From: a virus
Direction: 5' to 3' (one strand)
DNA: 11,163 bases
UHGV virus genome: UHGV-1347585
The position numbers and the translations under genes are program-made. The notes beneath the pieces are model-generated. The model saw nothing but the letters and a program-made list of their open reading frames with translations. It did no database searches and was not told the origin of the DNA. Shown here piece after piece: positions 1-11,100 of the stretch; positions within the stretch are counted from its first letter, which is position 1; each line of letters begins with the position of its first letter.

Positions 1-72
1 AAGCCGATTGAATATTGAGCAGTAGAAAATATCTGGATTGACAGTATTACAAGGGATTGGAGAACGTCAGAA

Positions 73-102
73 GAGGTATTTTGGCGGAAGATCACAGGAG
101 TC
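73..102. repeat. Distal att direct repeat; contains a duplicated 21-nt selC 3' end fragment
   Basis: gaggtattttggcggaagatcacaggagtc at 73..102 matches 11101..11130 at 29 of 30 positions. Bases 82..102 are the reverse complement of the tRNA-Sec 3' end (gactcctgtgatcttccgcca). Confidence 0.85.
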
Positions 103-230
103 AAAATTGCCATATAACCACTTGATTCAAATCGTTTATATTTTTCTATTCTAATTCATTTATACACTTCCTTATACATATAATATCTATCGATTAATTG
201 TTACACGTATCTTCACGCACGTTAACTCAG

Positions 231-532
231 GAAAAAAATTTTTTTTCGGAAGAACTGTTCACACTGTTCACCTTTCTGTTTTTTCCTTTTATTTCAGTTG
301 GATAGGTGGTGAATAATGGGTGAAGGGTGAACATTCGATTCTTCACCTCCGGCATTCTGCCGGTGTGACTTGTGCAGGGGATTAATCCTCCGCACTGAAA
401 TCACACCGGAAGAAAAAAGTTTTTTTTGATTTGATTGTTCACACTGTTCACCTTTCGTTTTTCTCTTTTAATTTCAGTGTGATAACGGGTGAACATACGG
501 TGAAGGGTGAACAGTGGATTGTTCACCTTCGG
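231..532. repeat. crr-like cis replication region: two ~120-bp direct repeats carrying TGTTCACC-type iterons
   Basis: Units at about 231..352 and 409..532 are near-identical with a 180-bp period (tgttcacactgttcacctttc at 256..276 and 436..456). Each holds several GGTGAACA/TGTTCACC octamers in both orientations. The position just downstream of alpha matches P4 crr. Confidence 0.8.
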
Positions 533-544
533 GGGATTCAGGGA

Positions 545-570
545 TAAAAAAAGACCGGCAGATGCCGGTC
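545..570 (-). terminator. Rho-independent terminator downstream of alpha
   Basis: Inverted repeat gaccggc/gccggtc (553..559 and 564..570) with a 4-nt loop. On the minus strand it is followed by a run of U (plus-strand A run at 545..552). It lies 17 bp past the alpha stop codon. Confidence 0.65.
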
Positions 571-586
571 AGATGAGTCATGAGGG

Positions 587-2920
587 TCAGACTGTTGCAG
601 GGTCGTCACATTTTGGCAGCCAGTCGCCGTAGCTTTCCTCTTTCAGCGTCAGGTTGGTCTGTATCCCCTGTTTGGTATGGCGCTTCTCGTAATTCAGTCC
701 GTATTCCTTCAGCATCACCGGCAGCCCCAGCCCGAACATTTTCAGACTGAGTACGTTCCGGTAGCCGTTTGCCTCCATGTAGGCCAGATAGGCGTGATAG
801 AGGTATTTACGGTAATTACGCGGGATGATACTGGCGTTCCCCATATACATGCCGCTGGTCTGCGGCAGGGTTTCCAGATAGCCGATAAAATCAAACGTCG
901 GGTCGGCATCCCGTTTGATGTTCAGCGCCTCGTCTGAGTTCTGCTGGGACTGAAGCAGTGACCGGGCGAGCATCGGGTCGCTGAACTTCTGCATCAGGTG
1001 ACGCACGATGACCGCCAGCTCGCGGGTGATTTTGTCCTTAAGCTGCGGGTCGCGCTCCTGCGGGGCTATCTGTTCCGGGAAGTGAATAATCACCCGCCGG
1101 CGTGACACGCCGCCGCTGCGGTCGGTGAAGCGCATCGGGTTATTGTTCACGGCCAGAATCACCGCCGGGATGTGCGTGGAGTACGCATCCCGGTATTTCG
1201 GGTCAACGGACACCGCATCGCCGCCGGTGATGGCCTTGAGTCCGGCTCCGTCGCCGCTCCATTTTTCCTGGTCCGGCAGGCGTATCAGTGAGAAGCCAGT
1301 TAACGCGGCACGTTCACGCGGGGATTCCAGCGTCTCAATGGTGGCCGATGTGGCGTTATCCTCCCCGGCCAGCAGGGTGGCTATTTCGGCCATGATACTT
1401 TTGCCGCTGCCGCCGGGACCGGTCACCTCCAGAAAGAGCTGCCAGTCGTAGCGGTTTGCCAGCACCATAAACAGTGCGGCCAGAATCACGTCGCGTTTTT
1501 CCGCACGGCCACCGGCGGCACGGTCAAGCCAGCGCCAGAACGCGGGGGCGTGGGTTTCCAGCGTTTCCCCTTCCACCGGCGGGGTGAAATCCACATCGCA
1601 CAGGGTGCGCATCCAGTGTGACGGACTGTGCGGGTGGAACGTGCCGTTCTGCGTGTCGAGCACGCCGTTACGAAAGCCAATCAGGCGGCGGGAGGGGGCT
1701 TCCTGCTGCGGAATAATCAGCTTCAGGGTGTCCACCACGGAGGCCACCTTCCCGGAGGAGAACGGCGCGCGCAGACGCTGAAACAGCCCGGCCACATCCC
1801 GGGCAAAGTCCTGTGGCGGCAGCACCTTCCAGACACCATTTTCATAGCGGGACAGAAGCTGGCCGTTGGCATCGACCGCGAGCGCCTCGCCGTAATGCTC
1901 ATAGATACGCATGGCCTTTTCGCTGGTACTCATGGCGGAAAACTCCGCTTCGCTCATGGTGTCGAACGGGCTTTCAGCCGGTGGCCGGATGGCATCATAA
2001 ATGGCCTTACGGGTGGCTTCCCCGCCGTACTGCGTGAAGGCATCATTCCAGTCACCGAAGACCGGCGGCAGGGCAACAACACCTTCACACGCATCTGCGG
2101 CTGCGGCGGCTTTTTTCTGGCCGTCACCGCTGAGGTCACGGTCAGCAGCAAGGACAATCTGACAGGCCGGATGCTTCTGCCGGGCAAGGCTGGCCAGAGA
2201 AAGGAGGTTCACGGAAGAAAGCGCCACCATCACCGTTTCACCGGTCAGGTGATGTACGGTAAGTGCGGTCGCGTATCCCTCCGCTATCCACAGACGTTTT
2301 CCGGCCTGATTCTGTCCTTCAAGGATGTGACAGGTGCCCCTGACCTGTCCGCCTTTCAGGGTGCGCTTACGGCCGTCAGCACTGATTAACTGAAGGTTAA
2401 CCAGTTCGCCGCTGTCGTCATACAGTGGCACCACAAGGTCACCGGCACGCCAGCTCACGCCACCGGCTCTGTGTGTGCCGGTCAGCATCCGGCATTCCCG
2501 GCCGGGAAAGCCCTTGCGGGTCAGGTAGGCGTTACCGGTTCCGGGACGGGTTTTCGCCATCAGGGTTTGTGCCAGTGCGGCGGCGTTCTTCCGGGCGGCT
2601 TCTGTTTCAGCACCGGCGGCGGCCGTCACTGCCGGGTCAGCCGGGGGCAGGCAGCCGGTCACGGCAGCCACCTTTGCGGCCGCGTCGGACGGGGAAACAC
2701 CAAACACCTTTTCAACCAGTTTCAGGCCGTCACCGGCACCACACTGATTGCAGTACCAGGTGCCGCGCCCCTCCCTGTCATCAAAACGGAAGCGGTCACT
2801 TCCGCCACAGACCGGACAGGGCTGATGACGGTTTTTCAGCACCTGAATCCCCAGCGCCGGGAGAATACGCGGCCAGTGGCCGAGCGCATGGCTGACGGTG
2901 GCGGTTACGTTCATTTTCAT
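587..2920 (-). CDS. alpha: P4 alpha-type bifunctional primase-helicase (zinc-finger primase, TOPRIM, SF3-type helicase)
   Basis: 777-aa ORF, the length I recall for P4 alpha. N-terminal CPVCGG...YCNQCG zinc-binding motif, TOPRIM-like WIAEGYATA, Walker A GPGGSGKS. AAGGAG Shine-Dalgarno 9 nt upstream of the ATG at 2920. Iteron regions (crr, ori) are present in cis. Confidence 0.93.
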   Translation of the reverse strand: MKMNVTATVSHALGHWPRILPALGIQVLKNRHQPCPVCGGSDRFRFDDREGRGTWYCNQCGAGDGLKLVEKVFGVSPSDAAAKVAAVTGCLPPADPAVTAAAGAETEAARKNAAALAQTLMAKTRPGTGNAYLTRKGFPGRECRMLTGTHRAGGVSWRAGDLVVPLYDDSGELVNLQLISADGRKRTLKGGQVRGTCHILEGQNQAGKRLWIAEGYATALTVHHLTGETVMVALSSVNLLSLASLARQKHPACQIVLAADRDLSGDGQKKAAAAADACEGVVALPPVFGDWNDAFTQYGGEATRKAIYDAIRPPAESPFDTMSEAEFSAMSTSEKAMRIYEHYGEALAVDANGQLLSRYENGVWKVLPPQDFARDVAGLFQRLRAPFSSGKVASVVDTLKLIIPQQEAPSRRLIGFRNGVLDTQNGTFHPHSPSHWMRTLCDVDFTPPVEGETLETHAPAFWRWLDRAAGGRAEKRDVILAALFMVLANRYDWQLFLEVTGPGGSGKSIMAEIATLLAGEDNATSATIETLESPRERAALTGFSLIRLPDQEKWSGDGAGLKAITGGDAVSVDPKYRDAYSTHIPAVILAVNNNPMRFTDRSGGVSRRRVIIHFPEQIAPQERDPQLKDKITRELAVIVRHLMQKFSDPMLARSLLQSQQNSDEALNIKRDADPTFDFIGYLETLPQTSGMYMGNASIIPRNYRKYLYHAYLAYMEANGYRNVLSLKMFGLGLPVMLKEYGLNYEKRHTKQGIQTNLTLKEESYGDWLPKCDDPATV

Positions 2921-2934
2921 GGTGTTGTTCTCCT

Positions 2935-3255
2935 TCAGTGCAGTACCGGCGCTTTTATGTGACGGGCACAGAGTTCATCCATCACAACCAGCCCGAGAAA
3001 GGACAGCGACGGCGCGGCCTTCAGGGGGCCGGATTCCATTAAATCTTCCAGCAGGGCACAGGCTATCTGACGCCCTTTTTCCTCACCGTGCTGGCGCAGA
3101 TAAAAGCCCTCCAGCTCAGCGGCGATGGCCGCCTCCAGTGATTCAAGGGTGAGATGCGGGTAGCGGTGCTGACGTTCGCACACGGTCAGCCAGGCACAGG
3201 CGACAGCGCGACGGTAAAGGGCTGCGCGTAAGACGGGCGGTAAGGGTGTTTTCAT
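2935..3255 (-). CDS. Hypothetical protein, 106 aa, in the P4 left operon between orf151 and alpha
   Basis: ORF with a GGAGG Shine-Dalgarno 7 nt upstream of the ATG at 3255. Sits immediately upstream of alpha in the same orientation. No recognisable motif. Confidence 0.6.
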
Positions 3256-3390
3256 TTGCTTTCCTCCCTGTGACAGATGACTGCATTCCGTGCCGGTTGC
3301 ATTAACTGATAAGGCATATCTGCGTCTCCTGAAGACGTGCGTATCCCTGCGCGAATACGCACATTTAATTTTTCGGGTGTCGTTTTTTAA

Positions 3391-3846
3391 TTACAGATAA
3401 TTGCGGTAACTGTTATCCGGGGTGGTTTCCGGGTCAGGCTCCGTGCGGGGAATTTCCCGCCATTCCCGCGCCACCGGTGCCGCCCGGCTGACCGGAACAG
3501 GGTCCTGCGGGTAAATATCCAGATATTTCTCCCGCCATTTCTGTAATTCCGGGTCTCCGGCCATTTCTTTCAGTACCGCATGCCGGTTTACGGGGCTGCG
3601 TTTGAACAGGTCAGGACGGTCACAGGTAAATTCCCGCAGAAAACGCCCCAGCGGGATGTCTGTGGTGCGCCCGTCGGCGAGGATACGCACAAGGATACTG
3701 AATTTACGGCGGTACGGGTTCCAGACAATTTCCGGGCAGCGGTACGGCATTTCCCACGGAATACCGTCTTCCAGAATGCCGACCACGGCCACATCGGGAA
3801 AACCGGCAGAACGGTAAATCTCACCGGGCTGGGGAAAATCAAACAT
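3391..3846 (-). CDS. P4 orf151-like protein of unknown function
   Basis: 151-aa ORF at the position of P4 orf151 in the left operon. Its ATG overlaps the stop of the upstream ORF (ATGTTTGA), suggesting translational coupling. Confidence 0.7.
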   Translation of the reverse strand: MFDFPQPGEIYRSAGFPDVAVVGILEDGIPWEMPYRCPEIVWNPYRRKFSILVRILADGRTTDIPLGRFLREFTCDRPDLFKRSPVNRHAVLKEMAGDPELQKWREKYLDIYPQDPVPVSRAAPVAREWREIPRTEPDPETTPDNSYRNYL

Positions 3847-4126
3847 GCGTCCTGTCTCCCCGGTCTTTCTGCTGGGCGAGAAAATCGCGGCACAGGCCTT
3901 TGGCTTTCAGCTCATTCAGCACAAAATCAATATCTTCATTCAGGTAGCTGAAAATATGCGGAATATAGAGCTGATGCAGGCCGGAGAGTTCACGGTGAAT
4001 CAAATCACCCCCAACAAACTGGGATACGGCGCTGGCGCGGTTGAGCTTATGGTAAGCCTCAATGCTGAGGTGTTCACGGGCGTCATGACGCGCTGAGACG
4101 GTCTGAGGGGCTTTTTTATTACGCAC
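3839..4126 (-). CDS. Small protein, 95 aa, at the position of P4 epsilon (helper derepression); GTG start
   Basis: The in-frame part of the 177-aa ORF has no internal ATG, but a GTG at 4126 sits 6 nt after a GGAGG Shine-Dalgarno (4133..4137). The 95-aa product is immediately upstream of and coupled to orf151. The epsilon assignment is by position only. Confidence 0.5.
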
Positions 4127-4316
4127 GGGACACCTCCACAACCGGCAGACGGGCAGCAAGGGAGAGCACATAGTCACGGACAAGGGAACGGCGGGCGCTG
4201 CGTTCATCACCGGCGACGGTGCGAAGCATACAGATACGGGGATGACGGTCTGCGCGACGGACAGCCGCAAACACAAAGACAAATTCAGGGTGTGAGGGGG
4301 TAAGGGTTGTAGCCAT
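4119..4316 (-). CDS. Small hypothetical protein, 65 aa, immunity-region ORF with RBS embedded in the seqC-like element
   Basis: ATG at 4316 preceded by a strong AAGGAGG Shine-Dalgarno (4325..4331) with 8-nt spacing. It is the C-terminal portion of the 199-aa track ORF. Function unknown. Confidence 0.45.
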
Positions 4317-4373
4317 GATGGCAGCCTCCTTGAAGTAACAGTTACAGCTACCACTAGAGTTCCTACGCTCATG

Positions 4374-4452
4374 GGTGGTAGCCCGGACGGGGGTAGGAAT
4401 ACCGGCCTTCAAGGAAACCGGCCAGCCCGAAGGCTGCCCCGCCCGGACCACC
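4374..4452 (-). ncRNA. Candidate P4 CI-like immunity RNA containing the seqB-like element
   Basis: Minus-strand transcript with 5' GGUGGU and 3' ACCACC able to form a closing stem. Contains a cagcc-UUCG-ggctg tetraloop hairpin and a seqB-like segment (plus 4393..4414) complementary to the repeated elements at 4328..4368 (seqC-like) and 4548..4576 (seqA-like). Boundaries are approximate. Confidence 0.4.
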
Positions 4453-4604
4453 ATTATCTGACAGAGGCTACGGTTTAAAAACCACAGCCAGAAAAACAGG
4501 TGTGCCGAAGCAACGACGTAAAAAAAGACGCATGGCGCGTCATATGTCGCCTTGAAGTAACTCGGGTTCCTACGCCCGGCTGCCGATTTTGCGGCAGCGG
4601 AAAA

Positions 4605-4634
4605 ACTATATCCGCAAATGCCGGAAAAAGGCAA
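4605..4634 (-). promoter_or_regulatory. Candidate sigma70 promoter (P_LE-like) driving the immunity/left operon
   Basis: Minus-strand TTGCCT (4634..4629), 18-nt spacer, TATAGT (4610..4605). Located between vis and the seqA-like element. Confidence 0.45.
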
Positions 4635-4669
4635 GCCAGAAAAAGGGAGTTTTTGCAGAGCGGGCATCA

Positions 4670-4936
4670 TCATGCGTCGTACCCCCGTTTGCGTACGGCA
4701 ATGCGCCCGGCCATCCATGCGGTGACTTCAGAGTGCAGCCAGGCCACATTTTTACCGCCAAGACTCACCTGCGGCGGAAATTCCCCCTTACGGATAAGTT
4801 CATAGATGGTCGAGCGTGACAGGCCGCACAGGTGCATCACTTCCGGCAGACGTAAAAAACGCTCCTGCGTGATGTCCGGCAGCGGCATCAGTGGCGTCAC
4901 AGGGGCGGGAGACGGGGAAGAAAAAACAGCTTGCAT
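4670..4936 (-). CDS. vis: AlpA/Vis-family small DNA-binding regulator/excisionase
   Basis: 88-aa ORF with an AlpA-type helix-turn-helix core (FLRLPEV...[17 protein letters not shown]...W). GAGG Shine-Dalgarno 7 nt upstream of the ATG. Position downstream of the leftward late promoter matches P4 vis (orf88). Confidence 0.75.
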
Positions 4937-5058
4937 CGGGCTACCTCGTTAATGTCCATACAGCACCGGATAAGTCCGTCCGGCTTCGGGTAGCGCTTTA
5001 TTTTGTGAATATTTTTGGCAGACGCAACAGGGGGAATTTGTTCCGGCAACCTTACAAT

Positions 5059-5076
5059 GGCTGTGTGTTTTTTATC
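5059..5076. promoter_or_regulatory. TGT-N12-ACA dyad: Delta/Ogr activator box of the leftward late promoter (PLL-like)
   Basis: tgttccggcaaccttaca is an exact TGT-N12-ACA element about 120 bp upstream of the vis start (which is on the minus strand). Confidence 0.55.
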
Positions 5077-5099
5077 CATCCGGACTGGAAGGGTCTCAA

Positions 5100-5320
5100 A
5101 GGGTTCTGAAGGACCTGGAATTTTTTATAGTGAAATGCAAATTATTTTTTCTTATTTATTTCAGTTAATTAATAAAAATAAACAGTAATAAACAGCATAA
5201 AAAGCCCATCAACGGGTGAACAGTGGTGAACAGACGGTGAACAGTCATTACTGCGATTGTTCACCCTTTAACTTACTGTATTACTTATCTTTTTTATTAA
5301 GGTGAACAGAGGTGAACAGT
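5100..5320. repeat. ori-like region: AT-rich tract followed by a cluster of GGTGAACA iterons
   Basis: 5100..5210 is strongly AT-rich. 5214..5320 holds five direct GGTGAACAG copies (three tandem, then two) plus an inverted TGTTCACC. The same octamer occurs in the crr-like repeats about 4.7 kb away. Confidence 0.75.
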
Positions 5321-5398
5321 AAAATATAAAAAAAACAAACAGTAAGCCGGTTTTTCCTGCGACCTTTTCCTGGCTTGCCGGTCTGAGGATGAGTCTCC

Positions 5399-5416
5399 TG
5401 TGTCAGGGCTGGCACA
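5399..5416. promoter_or_regulatory. TGT-N12-ACA dyad: Delta/Ogr activator box of the sid promoter (Psid-like)
   Basis: tgtgtcagggctggcaca is an exact TGT-N12-ACA element about 80 bp upstream of the sid ATG, with a weak -10-like cacaat at 5451..5456. Confidence 0.6.
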
Positions 5417-5488
5417 TCTGCAATGCGTCGTGTTGTTGTCCGGTGTACGTCACAATTTTCTTAACCTGAAGTGACGAGGAGCCGGAAA

Positions 5489-6223
5489 ATGTCTGACAAC
5501 ACCATCCCTGAATATCTGCAACCCGCGCTGGCACAACTGGAAAAGGCCAGAGCCGCCCATCTTGAGAACGCCCGCCTGATGGATGAGACCGTCACGGCCA
5601 TTGAACGGGCAGAGCAGGAAAAAAATGCGCTGGCGCAGGCCGACGGAAACGACGCTGACGACTGGCGCACGGCCTTTCGTGCAGCCGGTGGTGTCCTGAG
5701 CGACGAGCTGAAACAGCGCCACATTGAGCGCGTGGCACGCCGGGAGCTGGTACAGGAATATGACAATCTGGCCGTGGTGCTGAATTTCGAACGTGAACGC
5801 CTGAAAGGGACGTGTGACAGCACGGCCACCGCCTACCGGAAGGCACATCATCACCTGCTGAGTCTGTATGCAGAGCATGAGCTGGAACACGCCCTGAATG
5901 AAACCTGTGAGGCGCTTGTCCGGGCAATGCATCTGAGCATCCTGGTACAGGAAAATCCGCTCGCCAACACCACCGGCCATCAGGGCTACGTCGCGCCGGA
6001 AAAGGCTGTCATGCAGCAGGTGAAATCATCGCTGGAACAGAAAATAAAACAGATGCAAATCAGCCTCACCGGCGAGCCGGTTATCCGGCTGACCGGACTG
6101 TCAGCGGCAACACTCCCGCACATGGATTATGAGGTGGCAGGCACACCGGCACAGCGCAAGGTGTGGCAGGACAAAATAGACCAGCAGGGAGCAGAGCTTA
6201 AGGCCAGAGGACTGCTGTCATGA
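5489..6223 (+). CDS. sid: Sid-like external scaffold / capsid size determination protein
   Basis: The track ORF starts at an upstream GTG (5471). The ATG at 5489 has a GAGGAG Shine-Dalgarno 7 nt upstream and gives 244 aa, the length I recall for P4 Sid. First gene of a sid-delta-psu operon; its stop overlaps the delta start (ATGA). Confidence 0.8.
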   Translation: MSDNTIPEYLQPALAQLEKARAAHLENARLMDETVTAIERAEQEKNALAQADGNDADDWRTAFRAAGGVLSDELKQRHIERVARRELVQEYDNLAVVLNFERERLKGTCDSTATAYRKAHHHLLSLYAEHELEHALNETCEALVRAMHLSILVQENPLANTTGHQGYVAPEKAVMQQVKSSLEQKIKQMQISLTGEPVIRLTGLSAATLPHMDYEVAGTPAQRKVWQDKIDQQGAELKARGLLS

Positions 6224-6720
6224 TTTACTGCCCGTCGTGTGGACATGTTGCTCACACCCGTCGCGCACATTTCATGGACGATGGCACCAAGATAATGATT
6301 GCACAGTGCCGGAATATTTATTGCTCTGCGACATTTGAAGCGAGTGAAAGCTTTTTCTCTGACTGTAAAGATTCAGGAATGGAATACATTTCAGGCAAAC
6401 AGAGATACCGCGATTCACTGACGTCAGCCTCCGGCAGTATGAAACGCCAGAAAAGAATGCTTGTTACCGGATATTGTTGTCGGAGATGTAAAGGCCTTGC
6501 ACTGTCAAGAACATCGCGGCGTCTGTCTCAGGAAGTCACCGAGCGTTTTTATGTGTGCACGGATCCGGGCTGTGGTCTGGTGTTTAAAACGCTTCAGACC
6601 ATCAACCGCTTCATTGTCCGCCCGGTCACGCCGGACGAACTGGCAGAAAGCCTGCATGAAAAACAGGAACTGCCGCCAGTACGGTTAAAAACACAATCAT
6701 ATTCGCTGCGTCTGGAATGA
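6220..6720 (+). CDS. delta: Delta-like late transcription activator: tandem Ogr-type zinc-finger domains
   Basis: 166 aa. The N-terminus MIYCPSCGHVAHTRR...CRNIYCSATF is a clear Ogr-family C4 zinc-finger signature. A second copy of the motif (YCCRRCKG...CTDPGCGLVF) matches the duplicated-Ogr architecture of P4 Delta. Confidence 0.9.
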   Translation: MIYCPSCGHVAHTRRAHFMDDGTKIMIAQCRNIYCSATFEASESFFSDCKDSGMEYISGKQRYRDSLTSASGSMKRQKRMLVTGYCCRRCKGLALSRTSRRLSQEVTERFYVCTDPGCGLVFKTLQTINRFIVRPVTPDELAESLHEKQELPPVRLKTQSYSLRLE

Positions 6721-6793
6721 GGGCTGCCGGTTAACCCCGGCCGTCGCCGCACACCGTATTTTTATTCTTCAGCATGATGAGAAAGAGATAACG

Positions 6794-7366
6794 ATGGAAA
6801 GCACAGCCTTACAGCAGGCCTTTGACACCTGTCAGAATAACAAAGCAGCATGGCTGCAACGCAAAAATGAGCTGGCAGCGGCCGAACAGGAATATCTGCG
6901 GCTTCTGTCAGGAGAAGGCAGAAACGTCAGCCGCCTGGACGAATTACGCAATATTATCGAAGTCAGAAAATGGCAGGTGAATCAGGCCGCCGGTCGTTAT
7001 ATTCGTTCGCATGAAGCCGTTCAGCACATCAGCATCCGCGACCGGCTGAATGATTTTATGCAGCAGCACGGCACAGCACTGGCGGCGGCACTGGCACCGG
7101 AGCTGATGGGCTACAGTGAGCTGACGGCCATTGCCCGAAACTGTGCCATACAGCGTGCCACAGATGCCCTGCGTGAAGCCCTTCTGTCCTGGCTTGCGAA
7201 GGGGGAAAAAATTAATTATTCCGCACAGGATAGCGACATTTTAACGACCATCGGATTCAGGCCTGACGCGGCTTCGATGGATGACAGCCGTGAAAAATTC
7301 ACCCCTGCGCAGAACATGATTTTTTCGCGTAAAAGTGCGCAACTGGCATCACATCAGTCTGTGTAA
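6794..7366 (+). CDS. psu: Psu-like polarity suppression / capsid decoration protein
   Basis: 190-aa ORF, the length I recall for P4 Psu, directly downstream of delta and followed by a terminator. Assignment is by length and synteny. Confidence 0.75.
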   Translation: MESTALQQAFDTCQNNKAAWLQRKNELAAAEQEYLRLLSGEGRNVSRLDELRNIIEVRKWQVNQAAGRYIRSHEAVQHISIRDRLNDFMQQHGTALAAALAPELMGYSELTAIARNCAIQRATDALREALLSWLAKGEKINYSAQDSDILTTIGFRPDAASMDDSREKFTPAQNMIFSRKSAQLASHQSV

Positions 7367-7402
7367 AACTCCCCGAAAATCCGCCCGTTTTTACTGAAAA
7401 AA

Positions 7403-7430
7403 GCCATGCATCGATAAGGTGCATGGCTTT
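7403..7430 (+). terminator. Rho-independent terminator ending the sid-delta-psu operon
   Basis: Stem gccatgca/tgcatggc (7403..7410 and 7420..7427) with a 9-nt loop, followed by ttt and a further T-rich stretch. Confidence 0.6.
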
Positions 7431-7603
7431 GCATGCGTTTTCCTGCCTCATTTTCTGCAAACCGCGCCATTCCCGGCGCGGCCTGAGCGTGTCAGTGAAA
7501 CTGCATTAAAACCGCCCCGCAAAGCGGGCGGGCGTGGCGGGGAGAGCATTGCGCGCAAGCTGGGTAATTTTAGTTTCGTACATTTCTTGGTGGCAGGTAT
7601 ACT

Positions 7604-9718
7604 TTGACCGCATTTGCCGGGCAACATGTATATTGTATGAAGGATTTTAAAGATATAGTGTTTGCATTAGAAATGAATAAACCAGATGAGCAGATATCAG
7701 CATTAATTGCAAAAAAGGACATTACCATGCAGATAATAAGTGGCGAAACTAATATAAATGATGTTGGCATAAAAAAGAGATTTAAAAATTGCGAGCCATT
7801 TCAGTGTATTGTTGAGTTAGCATGGAATGGATTTGATGCCAAAGCTCGGAATGTCACTATTGAGGTGCGTAGAACTGATTTAGGCGGCCTGTCATCGGTT
7901 TATATTCTTGATGATGGTGATGGTATAGATTTTAATCACTTTGATTTGAACTTTAATAGATTTGATGATTCACTAAAAAAAGATAATATTGAATTACATG
8001 GCTCACAAGGAAGAGGAAGGCTTGCATTTCATAAGCTCAGCCGTCAAGCTATATGGTTTACTAAATATAACGATATAAATGCTAAAATAGAAATTGATGA
8101 TGCTGATCTTAAAAATTATCAAGCTTATATTAATATTCCGTATCAAGAGCAGCATTCAACATTAATCGGACAAAAAAGTGGCACATGTGTCATGTTGAAT
8201 CATTTTCATAATGATTTACCAAGTGATAATGAAATAATAAAAAGATTACAGAGTGAGTTTTGCTGTCACTTAGCACTGAACGAGCAGATAACGTTATCTT
8301 ATAATGGGGTTGTTATAACGGCACCAGAACATGATTCTCACTCATTAGAAAAAGAATTTGATGGAAGTTCATTTTCAATCAAGGCTCTCCGATGGGATGA
8401 AAAACCCTCTAAAGAAAGATCGTATGTATATTTGGTAAATTCGCAGGGTAAAAAAGTCCACGAAGTTCCAAGTAAATTTAATCAGAAAAAAGATTTCTAC
8501 CTTTCTATATTTGTCAGTTCTGACTGGGCTGATAACTTTAGTAATAAAGGCGATGATATATTTTCAGATGCTAAGTATAATGCTGACTCAAAAGTTTGGA
8601 AAGATGTCATAAAATTTGTTTGGGGATTATCAAAAAAGATATATGATGATTTCCTTCAAAAGAAAATCGACGAAACTTTAGAGCGTTATCAACAAGAGGG
8701 AGTATTCCCTTCTTATAGCGAATATTCAGATCCTAAATATGCTGAGTGGCGCTTGAATAATATCAAGGCTATCGTTCGTGATATATATATAGCCGAGCCA
8801 GCCATGCTCGATAATTTGAATACAAAACAAAGAAAGGTTTTTGTAAGGCTATTGGATAAACTATCTTCATCAAATAATAATGAGGATTTATTTAATATAC
8901 TTGAAAGCGTTTTAGATTTGAGTAAAGAGGGTTTGTCAAAACTTTCTAATCAATTAAGAATTACAAAACTTGATAATATAATTAGCGCGATTGAAGAACT
9001 ACAAAAAAGAAGGCTTGTAGTGGACAAGCTTCGTTATTTAATGGATCATCATTATAAGGAAATAAGAGAGACTCCAGATCTTCAAAAAATAATTGAAAAC
9101 AACACATGGTTGTTCGGTGAACGCTATGAAACTATCGGGGCTGAGGAAGATACTTTTACCAAAATAGCATTAGAATTAAGGAATAGTGTTAAACATATCA
9201 ACGATATTGATGAAGATGATGTTGAGAATGAGGCAGAATTAGCTGGTTCAAAACGGCAGACAGATCTATTTTTAGCCAGAAAGTACCCAGCCCTTGATTC
9301 CAATGGTAACCCATATTACAAATGCATTATCATTGAGATAAAAAGACCAAGTATTTCATTAAATATAAAACATCTAAGACAGCTTGATGATTATGCGGCA
9401 ATAATTCAAAGACATCCGGGGTTTAGTAGTCAAAATTTGCATTTTGAGCTCATACTCATAGGTCGTAAAATATCTAAAGATAGTTTCGAAATAGAAAGTA
9501 GATTGAATTCACATATACAAAAAGGTGATATGGGATTAGTTGGGGATGATCCTAGGATGAAGCGCTACGTTAAAAACTGGTATACCATTTTTGATGGTTT
9601 CGAACTCACTAATAGATTTATGCTTGATAAATTGAAATTAGAAAGAGATAGCTTAGAACTTGGTGAAATATGTTCGAAAGAAATTGTTTCAGAATTACAA
9701 GGTAACTTAAGTAAATAA
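7604..9718 (+). CDS. Cargo protein: N-terminal GHKL/Bergerat-fold ATPase fused to a C-terminal PD-(D/E)xK-like nuclease motif; candidate single-gene anti-phage defence protein
   Basis: 704-aa ORF from a TTG; internal ATGs at 7637, 7673 and 7727, the last with an AAGGA Shine-Dalgarno, are plausible true starts. N-box ELAWNGFDA, G1 box DDGDGI and G2 box GSQGRG occur in canonical order and spacing. The C-terminus has TDLF...IIEIKR (D...ExK). The gene is visibly AT-rich (roughly one third GC by eye) against a GC-richer backbone and occupies the psu-int slot. Confidence 0.85.
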   Translation: MTAFAGQHVYCMKDFKDIVFALEMNKPDEQISALIAKKDITMQIISGETNINDVGIKKRFKNCEPFQCIVELAWNGFDAKARNVTIEVRRTDLGGLSSVYILDDGDGIDFNHFDLNFNRFDDSLKKDNIELHGSQGRGRLAFHKLSRQAIWFTKYNDINAKIEIDDADLKNYQAYINIPYQEQHSTLIGQKSGTCVMLNHFHNDLPSDNEIIKRLQSEFCCHLALNEQITLSYNGVVITAPEHDSHSLEKEFDGSSFSIKALRWDEKPSKERSYVYLVNSQGKKVHEVPSKFNQKKDFYLSIFVSSDWADNFSNKGDDIFSDAKYNADSKVWKDVIKFVWGLSKKIYDDFLQKKIDETLERYQQEGVFPSYSEYSDPKYAEWRLNNIKAIVRDIYIAEPAMLDNLNTKQRKVFVRLLDKLSSSNNNEDLFNILESVLDLSKEGLSKLSNQLRITKLDNIISAIEELQKRRLVVDKLRYLMDHHYKEIRETPDLQKIIENNTWLFGERYETIGAEEDTFTKIALELRNSVKHINDIDEDDVENEAELAGSKRQTDLFLARKYPALDSNGNPYYKCIIIEIKRPSISLNIKHLRQLDDYAAIIQRHPGFSSQNLHFELILIGRKISKDSFEIESRLNSHIQKGDMGLVGDDPRMKRYVKNWYTIFDGFELTNRFMLDKLKLERDSLELGEICSKEIVSELQGNLSK

Positions 9719-9721
9719 TAT

Positions 9722-9755
9722 GCATATTGCATCGGTGAAATACTGATGCAATATG
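9722..9755. terminator. Hairpin between the convergent cargo gene and int; possible bidirectional terminator
   Basis: 11-bp perfect stem catattgcatc/gatgcaatatg with an 11-nt loop, flanked by AT-rich sequence, lying between the two convergent stop codons (9718 and 9770). Confidence 0.5.
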
Positions 9756-9769
9756 TTAGCATATAATAA

Positions 9770-10948
9770 TTATATTATGGCTGTTGTTAATAGGAAATCA
9801 CTATACCATTGCAACATTATTTTTCGATTTTCAATATATTGTGCATGATTGTATGTTCCACGAATGCTGTTCTTATCTACATGTGCAAGCTGCATCTCAA
9901 TCCACGCACTTTCAAATCCTTGTTCATGTAAGATCGTTGACATTGTGTGTCTGAATCCGTGACCTGTCGCACGTCCTTTGTAGCCCAGTAATTCAATTAC
10001 CTGCGACACACTTTCTTTAGAGATCGGTTTACTACGATTATTTCTACCAATAAAAATGTAGGGATAATGGCCGGTAATAGGTTTGAGCTGCTTAAATAGC
10101 TCAACTACCTGAGTAGATAAAGGAACAATGTGAGGCCTACGCATTTTCATCCGTTCTGCTGGTATTTCCCATATACTTTTCTCAAGGTCAACCTCATCCC
10201 ATGTAGCAAAGCGCATCTCTTGGGTTCGTACACCGGTCAGCATGACGATTTTTGTCGCATTCTTAGTGATAATGCTGCCGGTATACGCTTCAAGATCCCG
10301 AATAAAATGAGGTAACTCTTCAGCGGATAAAAATGGATGATGCTTTTGCTTCGGAACGGCCAAAGCAATAGCCAAATCAGGAGCAGGATTGTATTCTGCG
10401 CGGCCAGTTATAATTGCATAGCGATAGACCTCGCCGCATCTTTGGCGCACTTTTCTGGTCTTCTCTAGCGCTCCACGCTTCTCTATTCGCCGCAATACTT
10501 CAAGCAGTTCTAACGGTTTGATTTCACTGATAGGGCGTTTACCAATGAACGGGAACACATCTTGTTCAAATGTCTTAATGATTTCTTCGCGATAGGCCAC
10601 TGTCCAGCGGTCAGCTTTGTTGGTGTGCCATTCTCGACATATGGCTTCGAATGAATTCTCTGTTGAGAGTTGCTGTGCCAGCTTTTGGGCTTTACGTTCT
10701 TCTACTGGGTCTATGCCGTTTGCTACCTGCTTACGAGCTGTATCGCGTTTCTCACGTGCTTCTGCGAGGCTCACAAGGTCGTAGCTGCCAAATGACATTA
10801 GCCGTGCTTTACCGGCAAAACGAAAGCGGAAGCGCCAGCCCTTTGAGCCGTCTGGATTGATGAGTAATGACAGGCCTTGTCCATCGTTCAATGTGTAGGG
10901 CTTGTCTTGGGGCTTTGCTCGTTTAATTTGAATGTCTGTGAGTGGCAT
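9770..10948 (-). CDS. int: P4-family tyrosine integrase (site-specific recombinase), selC-specific
   Basis: 392 aa. N-terminus with the P4-integrase-like arm-binding signature (KPYTLNDGQGLSLLINPDGSKGWRFRFRF). C-terminal catalytic motifs HGFRHT and RGTYNHAQY contain the tyrosine nucleophile. Lies next to the selC 3' end in the same orientation. Confidence 0.95.
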   Translation of the reverse strand: MPLTDIQIKRAKPQDKPYTLNDGQGLSLLINPDGSKGWRFRFRFAGKARLMSFGSYDLVSLAEAREKRDTARKQVANGIDPVEERKAQKLAQQLSTENSFEAICREWHTNKADRWTVAYREEIIKTFEQDVFPFIGKRPISEIKPLELLEVLRRIEKRGALEKTRKVRQRCGEVYRYAIITGRAEYNPAPDLAIALAVPKQKHHPFLSAEELPHFIRDLEAYTGSIITKNATKIVMLTGVRTQEMRFATWDEVDLEKSIWEIPAERMKMRRPHIVPLSTQVVELFKQLKPITGHYPYIFIGRNNRSKPISKESVSQVIELLGYKGRATGHGFRHTMSTILHEQGFESAWIEMQLAHVDKNSIRGTYNHAQYIENRKIMLQWYSDFLLTTAII

Positions 10949-11100
10949 ATGTATAAGTCAAAAATATGTATAAAAGATCTATACACATCACTATACATAT
11001 TTTTCACGGATTCAGGGAGAACTTGTCGGACGGTTACGGATGAGTGATTTACTATGTATACTGAAAATAAAGGATTTTTAGACGTTCTCGGATAGCGGCG

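Follow-up and report, generated by a model that had tools for sequence, protein, structure and literature searches.

An AT-rich hotspot cargo in a P4-like satellite of Escherichia coli encodes a probable GHKL-ATPase nuclease of the paraMORC3 / type I-D Shedu class

The virus genome UHGV-1347585, an 11,163-nucleotide stretch of DNA (here the window), is in its entirety a complete P4-like phage satellite of Escherichia coli, located at the tRNA-Sec gene (selC). An AT-rich island between its psu and int genes is the published P4 psu–int anti-phage hotspot beside the cohesive-end site cos, a phenomenon that is already known: Rousset et al. 2022 (PMC9122126) placed this hotspot directly beside cos and found more than 300 gene arrangements in it. 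The window's island differs from the published hotspot in nothing of kind, sharing its position, cos adjacency, conserved flanks and a variable AT-rich cargo of ~2 kb, with sister cargos that include known defence genes. Its slot holds a single open reading frame (ORF), and RefSeq annotates no further gene there. We consider it probable that this hotspot cargo encodes an anti-phage nuclease of the paraMORC3 or type I-D Shedu-like class; the doubt that remains concerns mostly its function and not its anatomy. The slot, its boundaries, the swapping of its contents, the domain architecture of the cargo protein, its intact catalytic residues, the purifying selection on its gene and the association with mobile defence loci are all established by the comparisons below. 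The features on which the argument turns are as follows.

6794–7366, plus strand: psu, which closes the run of backbone genes ahead of the hotspot; a 190-aa ORF that RefSeq calls ‘phage polarity suppression protein’
7400–7435, plus strand: hairpin downstream of psu; 13-bp stem, −21.5 kcal/mol, z −4.25
7531–7549: cos cohesive-end 19-mer, GGCGTGGCGGGGAGAGCAT; 186/Eganvirus type plus G14
7557–7726, plus strand: cargo-specific upstream region of 170 bases, GC 0.353, presumed promoter and 5′ untranslated region; AAGGA Shine-Dalgarno sequence at 7715–7719
7727–9718, plus strand: cargo gene, 663 aa; predicted GHKL ATPase–S5–helical–PD-(D/E)xK nuclease
9718–9764, both strands: AT-rich hairpin separating the cargo gene from int, which converges on it; −21.7 kcal/mol and z −4.44 on the plus strand, −16.7 kcal/mol and z −4.30 on the minus strand
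9770–10948, minus strand: tyrosine integrase gene int, the right bound of the hotspot; a 392-aa ORF annotated as an integrase

The same tRNA-Sec site harbours four sister satellites. From base 1 to 7555–7568 they match the window at 97.8–98.2% identity; past that point they are unrelated to it, and homology returns at 9789–9803, within the last codons of int. In the slot they carry four unrelated cargos: GapS4a/GapS4b, a reverse transcriptase with SLATT, an anti-phage dCTP deaminase and a P-loop NTPase. An earlier note, made from the letters of this DNA alone, had read the island as a product of modular swapping at a satellite hotspot and had proposed alignment to other P4-like elements as a check; the alignment, with its break at 7555–7568 and its return at 9789–9803, bears that reading out. 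The cassette also stands, as had been supposed, in the place of the accessory genes that P4 usually carries: in the reference P4 genome the slot between cos and int (positions 247–2540, GC 0.357) is occupied by the gop-beta-cII module, which has three genes to the window's one and encodes unrelated proteins. Nor is the cargo a fixed gene of the backbone, being present in only 18 of 5426 E. coli genomes. Satellites would exchange their cargos by recombining with one another, with the conserved cos region serving as the anchor to the left and the integrase as the anchor to the right. A local mutational or selective bias acting on an old, vertically inherited region could in principle produce an AT-rich tract with no horizontal exchange at all, and the backbone does contain further AT-rich troughs (4951–5400 and 1–450). 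We give this explanation practically no credence, because the alignments refute it: sisters with 98% identical flanks have wholly unrelated slot sequence, and the gene itself occurs at 79–84% amino-acid identity in other genera and in different elements.

The composition of the island tells a more qualified story. GC content is 0.328 in 7557–9769 and 0.561 in the backbone at 587–7556, a gap of ~22 binomial standard errors (by arithmetic from the two GC values), so the compositional island is real and far beyond chance. It does not, however, begin at 7431, where it had been drawn from the sequence: bases 7431–7556 have a GC content of 0.635 and are conserved backbone holding cos. A sliding GC calculation finds a sharp step on the left only, shifted to ~7557–7623, with the likelihood change-point at ~7623 (a gain of 55.8 nats) and the conservation break at 7556–7568. 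The sharp step expected on the right is not there; the best change-point lies at ~9858 (26.1 nats) and is followed by a gradual GC rise through int. The flanking genes are accordingly GC-rich on the psu, sid and alpha side but not on the int side, where GC is 0.444 overall and 0.387 in the 3′ third of the gene. GC at third codon positions is 0.25 in the cargo ORF and 0.56–0.71 in psu, sid and alpha, and the most frequent codons of the cargo ORF (GAT 53, AAA 46, AAT 36, ATA 32) include three of the four said to dominate it, with ATT outside the top eight. Every cargo examined at the slot is equally AT-rich (0.32–0.34 in the sisters, 0.357 in gop-beta-cII of P4). The slot itself is therefore characterised by low GC, which provides no evidence on the recency of a swap; of the ‘recently exchanged cassette’ of the earlier note, the exchange stands on the sister alignments and the recency, which had been read from AT-richness, falls away.

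The left boundary of the island is the cos site, 126 nt past the psu hairpin, and not the psu terminator at which it had been placed. The hairpin at 7400–7435 is identical in all four sister satellites and is probably the psu terminator, a part of the conserved backbone. The idea of a module bounded by terminators survives only to the extent that both hairpins fold: neither 7400–7435 nor 9718–9764 passes the criteria of a terminator scan, and the left one is no boundary. When the cos region is aligned with P2, 186-like phages and the sister satellites, conserved cos-flanking sequence spans ~7457–7556 and cos directly adjoins the slot, with the 19-mer at 7531–7549 and variable sequence from 7557–7570. 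The sole terminator-like call near the left boundary, at 7512–7531 on the minus strand, falls in this cos flank (CCGCCCGCTTTGCGGGGCGG then TTTTAATG); P2 and 186-like phages conserve this sequence too, within their cos regions. A 62-aa ORF at 7419–7607, recorded as hypothetical in some annotations, was discarded as a candidate for the cargo, since it runs across conserved cos sequence.

The cos sequence itself sets the window apart from its sisters. The cos of P4, of P2 and of all four sisters is GGCGAGGCGGGGAAAGCAC, with which the linear P4 record also opens, whereas the window 19-mer has the T5 and T19 of the 186/Eganvirus type and an additional A-to-G change at position 14. This 186/Eganvirus-type cos suggests, from sequence, a 186-like helper. 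The E1 strain's satellite, which carries a HEPN cargo in a different backbone, shares this exact cos variant (locus coordinates 3468–3486), and we therefore rejected a model in which this unusual form of cos moves together with the cargo. Instead, among the handful of elements compared, cos type appears to track the int lineage, since the E1 satellite, despite its HEPN cargo, has the int closest to that of the window (90.7% identity). A Klebsiella satellite with an orthologous cargo has an intact P2-type cos at locus coordinates 7556–7574 and, ~340 nt further on and just upstream of the cargo, a second, truncated cos-like remnant, GCAGGCGGGGAGAACATTGCGCGCAA (~7840–7940), which shares the window's G14/T19 signature. 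This remnant may be a recombination scar near cos.

On the right, the hairpin at 9718–9764 lies between convergent genes and has no canonical U-tract; it is possibly a two-way terminator. Beyond it, the int/attP region (9790–11100) is only 84–86% identical to the same sisters whose left backbone is 98% identical to the window. The exact int allele (100% identity) is confined to the 18 cargo-bearing genomes, the next best reaching 90.4%. By these sequence comparisons the cargo and the integrase look like one linked block, and the lineage-specific segment probably exceeds the island and runs from the cos core through int, as far as a handful of elements can indicate.

The start of the cargo gene is annotated in three ways: at TTG 7604 (704 aa, the maximal ORF), at ATG 7637 (693 aa, RefSeq WP_231528590.1) and, in many GenBank records, so as to give 663 aa. 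Because homologues of the cargo are 655–675 aa long and DNA similarity with the copies from Klebsiella, Serratia and Yersinia sets in at 7711–7713, just before AAGGA and ATG 7727, we assign the gene to 7727–9718 with a product of 663 aa, and the 704-aa gene of the original description corresponds only to the maximal ORF. Comparison with the Klebsiella orthologue (82% amino-acid identity) gives a proportion of nonsynonymous differences (pN) of 0.10 and of synonymous differences (pS) of 0.81, with synonymous sites saturated; the cargo gene is, on this sequence comparison, under purifying selection. The protein is predicted to consist of four parts.

7727–8281, plus strand, aa 1–185: GHKL ATPase domain with E30, N34, D62-x-G64-x-G66, G92/G95/G97-R98 and G152-T153
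8282–8581, plus strand, aa 186–285: beta-rich second domain, S5/transducer-like as in MORC, MutL and GyrB, by Foldseek and predicted secondary structure
8582–9121, plus strand, aa 286–465: all-helical middle region with the near-invariant E448; helices of the model at 289–463
9122–9646, plus strand, aa 466–640: PD-(D/E)xK nuclease core with D513, E537, K539 and Q552

All four motifs of the Bergerat fold (ExxxN, DxGxG, the glycine-rich lid and GT; motifs I–IV) are present and conserved, and Pfam HATPase_c_3 matches aa 25–153 with 57.7 bits against a cut-off of 25, as it does all 74 relatives scanned. Scored over 74–78 family members with 22–84% identity to the window protein, the GHKL residues E30, N34, D62, G64, G66, G92, G95, G97, R98, G152 and T153 either do not vary or are conserved to at least 90%; in the nuclease, D513, E537 and K539 are invariant, Q552 is invariant or nearly so, and E448 is at least 90% conserved. 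In a PDB profile search MutL, PMS2 and Mlh1 match the GHKL head at E 6e-8, and PDB sequence searches with the protein, a full-length profile and a C-terminal profile returned GHKL heads only, with no nuclease match. The full-length AlphaFold2 model has a mean predicted local distance difference test score (pLDDT) of 91.4. Foldseek aligns the full model with MORC2, MORC3, MORC4, MutL, GyrB and Hsp90 over 310–435 columns (E 7e-12 to 1e-9); the first 285 residues correspond to the two-domain ATPase modules of these proteins and are followed by the helical region and then by an alpha/beta nuclease core. In the model, the closest folds of this last domain all appear to be PD-(D/E)xK nucleases.

The family to which the protein belongs is large. 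Representatives of 1324 clusters at 50% identity match it at E up to 1e-3 and at least 191 such representatives do so at E up to 1e-30, and nearly all listed full-length representatives are 650–700 aa long and have one architecture. A relative is encoded in at least 567 species genomes from Proteobacteria, Bacteroidota, Firmicutes and Cyanobacteria.

Two described classes share this architecture. Iyer, Abhiman and Aravind 2008 (PMC2292703) defined paraMORC3 as a GHKL domain, an S5 domain and a C-terminal restriction-endonuclease fold with an E-D-ExK signature, common in Proteobacteria and Bacteroidota, patchy in distribution and often stand-alone. The cargo protein has the GHKL head, the S5/transducer-like domain (in the predicted structure) and the E-D-ExK nuclease (E448-D513-E537-x-K539), so that its membership rests on matching described features and not on a score, in a family that was itself defined computationally. 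The second class is represented by VcSduA, a GHKL Shedu protein of type I-D described by Adams, Blokesch and colleagues in 2025 (PMC12137116), which gives E. coli protection from T1-like phages at all multiplicities of infection (MOIs) and loses this activity upon an E27A or K557A substitution. Gu et al. likewise placed HATPase_c_3-containing proteins in type 1D Shedu. We obtained the first 399 aa of VcSduA from a preprint supplement and the full length by homology search; none of the family representatives corresponded to VcSduA in its E27/K557 numbering. VcSduA and the cargo protein are of similar length (673 and 663 aa) and have the same domain order, and hhalign aligns their two families collinearly over 528 columns (probability 98.6%, E 1.3e-15, ~17% identity), placing D513/E537/K539 opposite VcSduA D527/E555/K557. 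VcSduA E27 corresponds by motif position to the motif-I residue E30, which lies just outside the hhalign span. Pairwise BLASTP is marginal (23% identity over 140 aa, E 0.002) but aligns the D...ExK segments. VcSduA differs in its setting, which is the VSP-II island next to GrwAB and not a satellite, and a homologue from Vibrio sagamiensis falls in the clade of the window protein and not in that of VcSduA. Canonical Shedu SduA proteins (B. cereus 8ti8/8ti9; E. coli 8ps4, PD-T4-8) have other N-terminal sensors and no GHKL-S5 module, and they form homotetramers whereas GHKL proteins are usually dimers (PMC12137116). By sequence and predicted structure, then, the cargo architecture is that of paraMORC3 / type I-D Shedu, and the profile alignment identifies the protein as a remote, full-length homologue of the validated defence protein VcSduA.

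By homology with these proteins, the cargo protein would dimerise via its GHKL ATPase heads and would have its nuclease gated by the binding and hydrolysis of ATP. The nuclease would cut invading phage DNA, and the outcome would be that both the host and the resident satellite are shielded from competing phages.

Several observations weigh against assigning the cargo to this class of defence nucleases. The protein is only ~17–23% identical to VcSduA, and the published table for the VcSduA hidden Markov model (HMM) has no Escherichia entry. The SduA model of PADLOC scores the window protein at E 1.5e-3 (15.8 bits), which is not significant, and the Pfam signature SduA_C / DUF4263 was not detected in it. 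Foldseek of the C-terminal part of the model gives only weak matches to restriction enzymes (E ≥0.07). Finally, no promoter was found in the island, where a scan called 13 sites compared with 11.9 in shuffled sequence. No signal in the scan rose above its shuffled controls. A candidate promoter picked by eye, TTGACC(7604)-N19-TATATT, is unsupported. With respect to the profile scores, PADLOC SduA models match ~15 of the 74 family members (best E 7.8e-7), with weak matches at aa 386–468, and neither VcSduA nor a close relative has any Pfam-A or PADLOC 2.0 match at E up to 0.1. Detectors built on HMMs (PADLOC 2.0 and the VcSduA model) miss the cargo clade, and PADLOC also misses VcSduA.

The same nuclease domain could instead belong to a solitary ATP-dependent restriction-type enzyme, type IV-like or an orphan of a restriction-modification (R-M) system, that recognises a sequence or a modification and not an infection signal. 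Iyer et al. (PMC2292703) placed paraMORC families in R-M contexts, Pfam HSDR_N_2, the PD-(D/E)xK nuclease domain of the type I R subunit, matches 37 of 74 family members, and FokI, N.BspD6I, MspJI and AspBHI are among the closest folds. PADLOC ‘REase_II’ models also match 23 of 74 members, but we rejected these matches as evidence for a restriction enzyme because they cover only the GHKL head (aa 11–163). Moreover, the single ORF of the island leaves no methyltransferase or second gene there, a Pfam scan finds no methylase domain in the cargo protein, and Iyer et al. also noted stand-alone paraMORC3 proteins without R-M partners. We regard a restriction-type enzyme as rather unlikely, and this alternative overlaps with a Shedu-like nuclease in that both are anti-phage nucleases.

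A different outcome would follow if the nuclease were an abortive-infection toxin that destroys host as well as phage DNA, so that death of the cell protects the population. Such a mode has been proposed for the E. coli Shedu PD-T4-8, as related by Gu et al., and would suit a nuclease without obvious discrimination between self and non-self. Nothing in the sequence tells the two modes apart. VcSduA, however, is the only protein of this architecture to have been validated, and its protection was equal at all MOIs; its authors read this as direct restriction with survival of the host (PMC12137116), and we judge abortive infection unlikely for the cargo.

Roles outside defence, such as DNA processing, helper exploitation or MutL-like repair on behalf of the satellite, or the life of a selfish passenger, must also be weighed. 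Several sources label the protein ‘DNA mismatch repair protein’, MutL has GHKL-S5 modules, and little over a third of the hotspot cargos tested by Rousset et al. (PMC9122126) showed defence. The resemblance to MutL, however, is limited to the ATPase head and scores 25 bits against a family cut-off of 180. In addition, the gene occurs in just 18 of 5426 genomes and most P4-like elements are without it, so the cargo is dispensable for the satellite life cycle; its close relatives, furthermore, reside in defence islands outside satellites and in a P2 prophage hotspot. For these reasons we consider a non-defence role very unlikely. Rousset et al. themselves list ‘HATPase_c_3’ loci in the P4 slot, the only form in which this type of cargo appears there, in Table S1A; the term is absent from their main text. 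Their accession WP_089563614 was not confirmed as the cargo protein and is not among the accessions listed for its cluster.

The genomic company of the closest relatives, given here with their identity to the window protein, favours the preferred reading as a hotspot-borne anti-phage nuclease.

Klebsiella, 82%: psu–int slot of a different P4-like satellite
Serratia, 79%: psu–int slot of a different P4-like satellite
Yersinia enterocolitica, 79%: hotspot of a P2-like prophage, with gpA on one side and the portal/terminase genes on the other, adjoining HicAB
Lonsdalea quercina, 84%: integrase/HTH island (locus coordinates 6497–9427), with a Peptidase_U49 protein and a DarT-NADAR pair directly downstream of the homologue
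Salmonella, 58%: integrase/HTH island on a scaffold related to that of Lonsdalea (Integrase_1, HTH_35)

Only the cargo ORF is common to these contexts, and it therefore behaves as expected of a one-gene defence cassette. The Yersinia copy (locus coordinates 4001–5992) lies ~800 nt downstream of a cos-like site (3162–3219), so that the family occupies both P4 and P2 hotspots; a 2026 study in NAR (Nucleic Acids Research; PMC13586616) reported that P2 and P4 do not exchange cargo. In a bolder version of the argument, which we hold to be possible but doubtful, the cargo clade would be a functionally distinct defence family, missed by detectors, that moves as a bare ORF among P4 satellites, P2-like helper prophages and integrative islands. 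If so, the 79%-identical copies in cos-adjacent hotspots of P4 and P2 would counter the reported lack of cargo sharing, and the clade might have a specificity unlike the anti-T1-like activity seen with VcSduA, for example one directed toward the helper phage or away from it.

The remainder of the window is typical of P4. Phage P4 aligns to 233–7530 at 97.4% identity, and the alignment ends exactly where the linear P4 record has its right end, the cos cut at window position 7530. The window sequence was recovered full-length, at 99.5–100% identity, in 17 complete E. coli genomes, and the insertion is flanked by a setC/rhuM remnant and by yicJ. The other annotated features, from RefSeq, are these.

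587–2920, minus strand: alpha primase; the left-operon genes are also on the minus strand
Plus strand, before delta in the gene order: sid-like gene
6220–6720, plus strand: delta
From ~11110: tRNA-Sec

Downstream of psu on the plus strand, RefSeq labels the cargo gene ‘ATP-binding protein’. The only matches in an Rfam scan of the window are in the P4 C4/CI immunity RNA region at 4371–4611 (C4/CI RNA at 4371–4458), with no Rfam family in the AT-rich island. The two other AT-rich troughs of the element are the regulatory region between the left operon and sid (4951–5400, GC 0.35–0.39) and a stretch made up of flank and part of the crr region (1–450, GC 0.33–0.37), in which 120-bp direct repeats occupy 233–352 and 413–532. 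E. coli ZYB62 harbours a deletion derivative of the same satellite (locus coordinates 7706–8290) that has lost the region between a 151-aa ORF and mid-delta. This decaying satellite has kept its cargo, together with psu, int and the junction to tRNA-Sec.

Taken alone, the island teaches nothing new, being a textbook example of the P4 hotspot beside cos. The linkage of cos type, cargo and int allele nevertheless bears on how hotspot cargos are exchanged. The greater value lies in the cargo, a member of a widespread family of GHKL-ATPase nucleases that is found on P4 satellites, in P2 prophages and in defence islands and goes unannotated by common detectors. If it is active, the type I-D Shedu / paraMORC3 class would extend to satellites of E. 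coli, and the cargo protein would offer a second, divergent protein with which to ask how a GHKL ATPase gates a nuclease.

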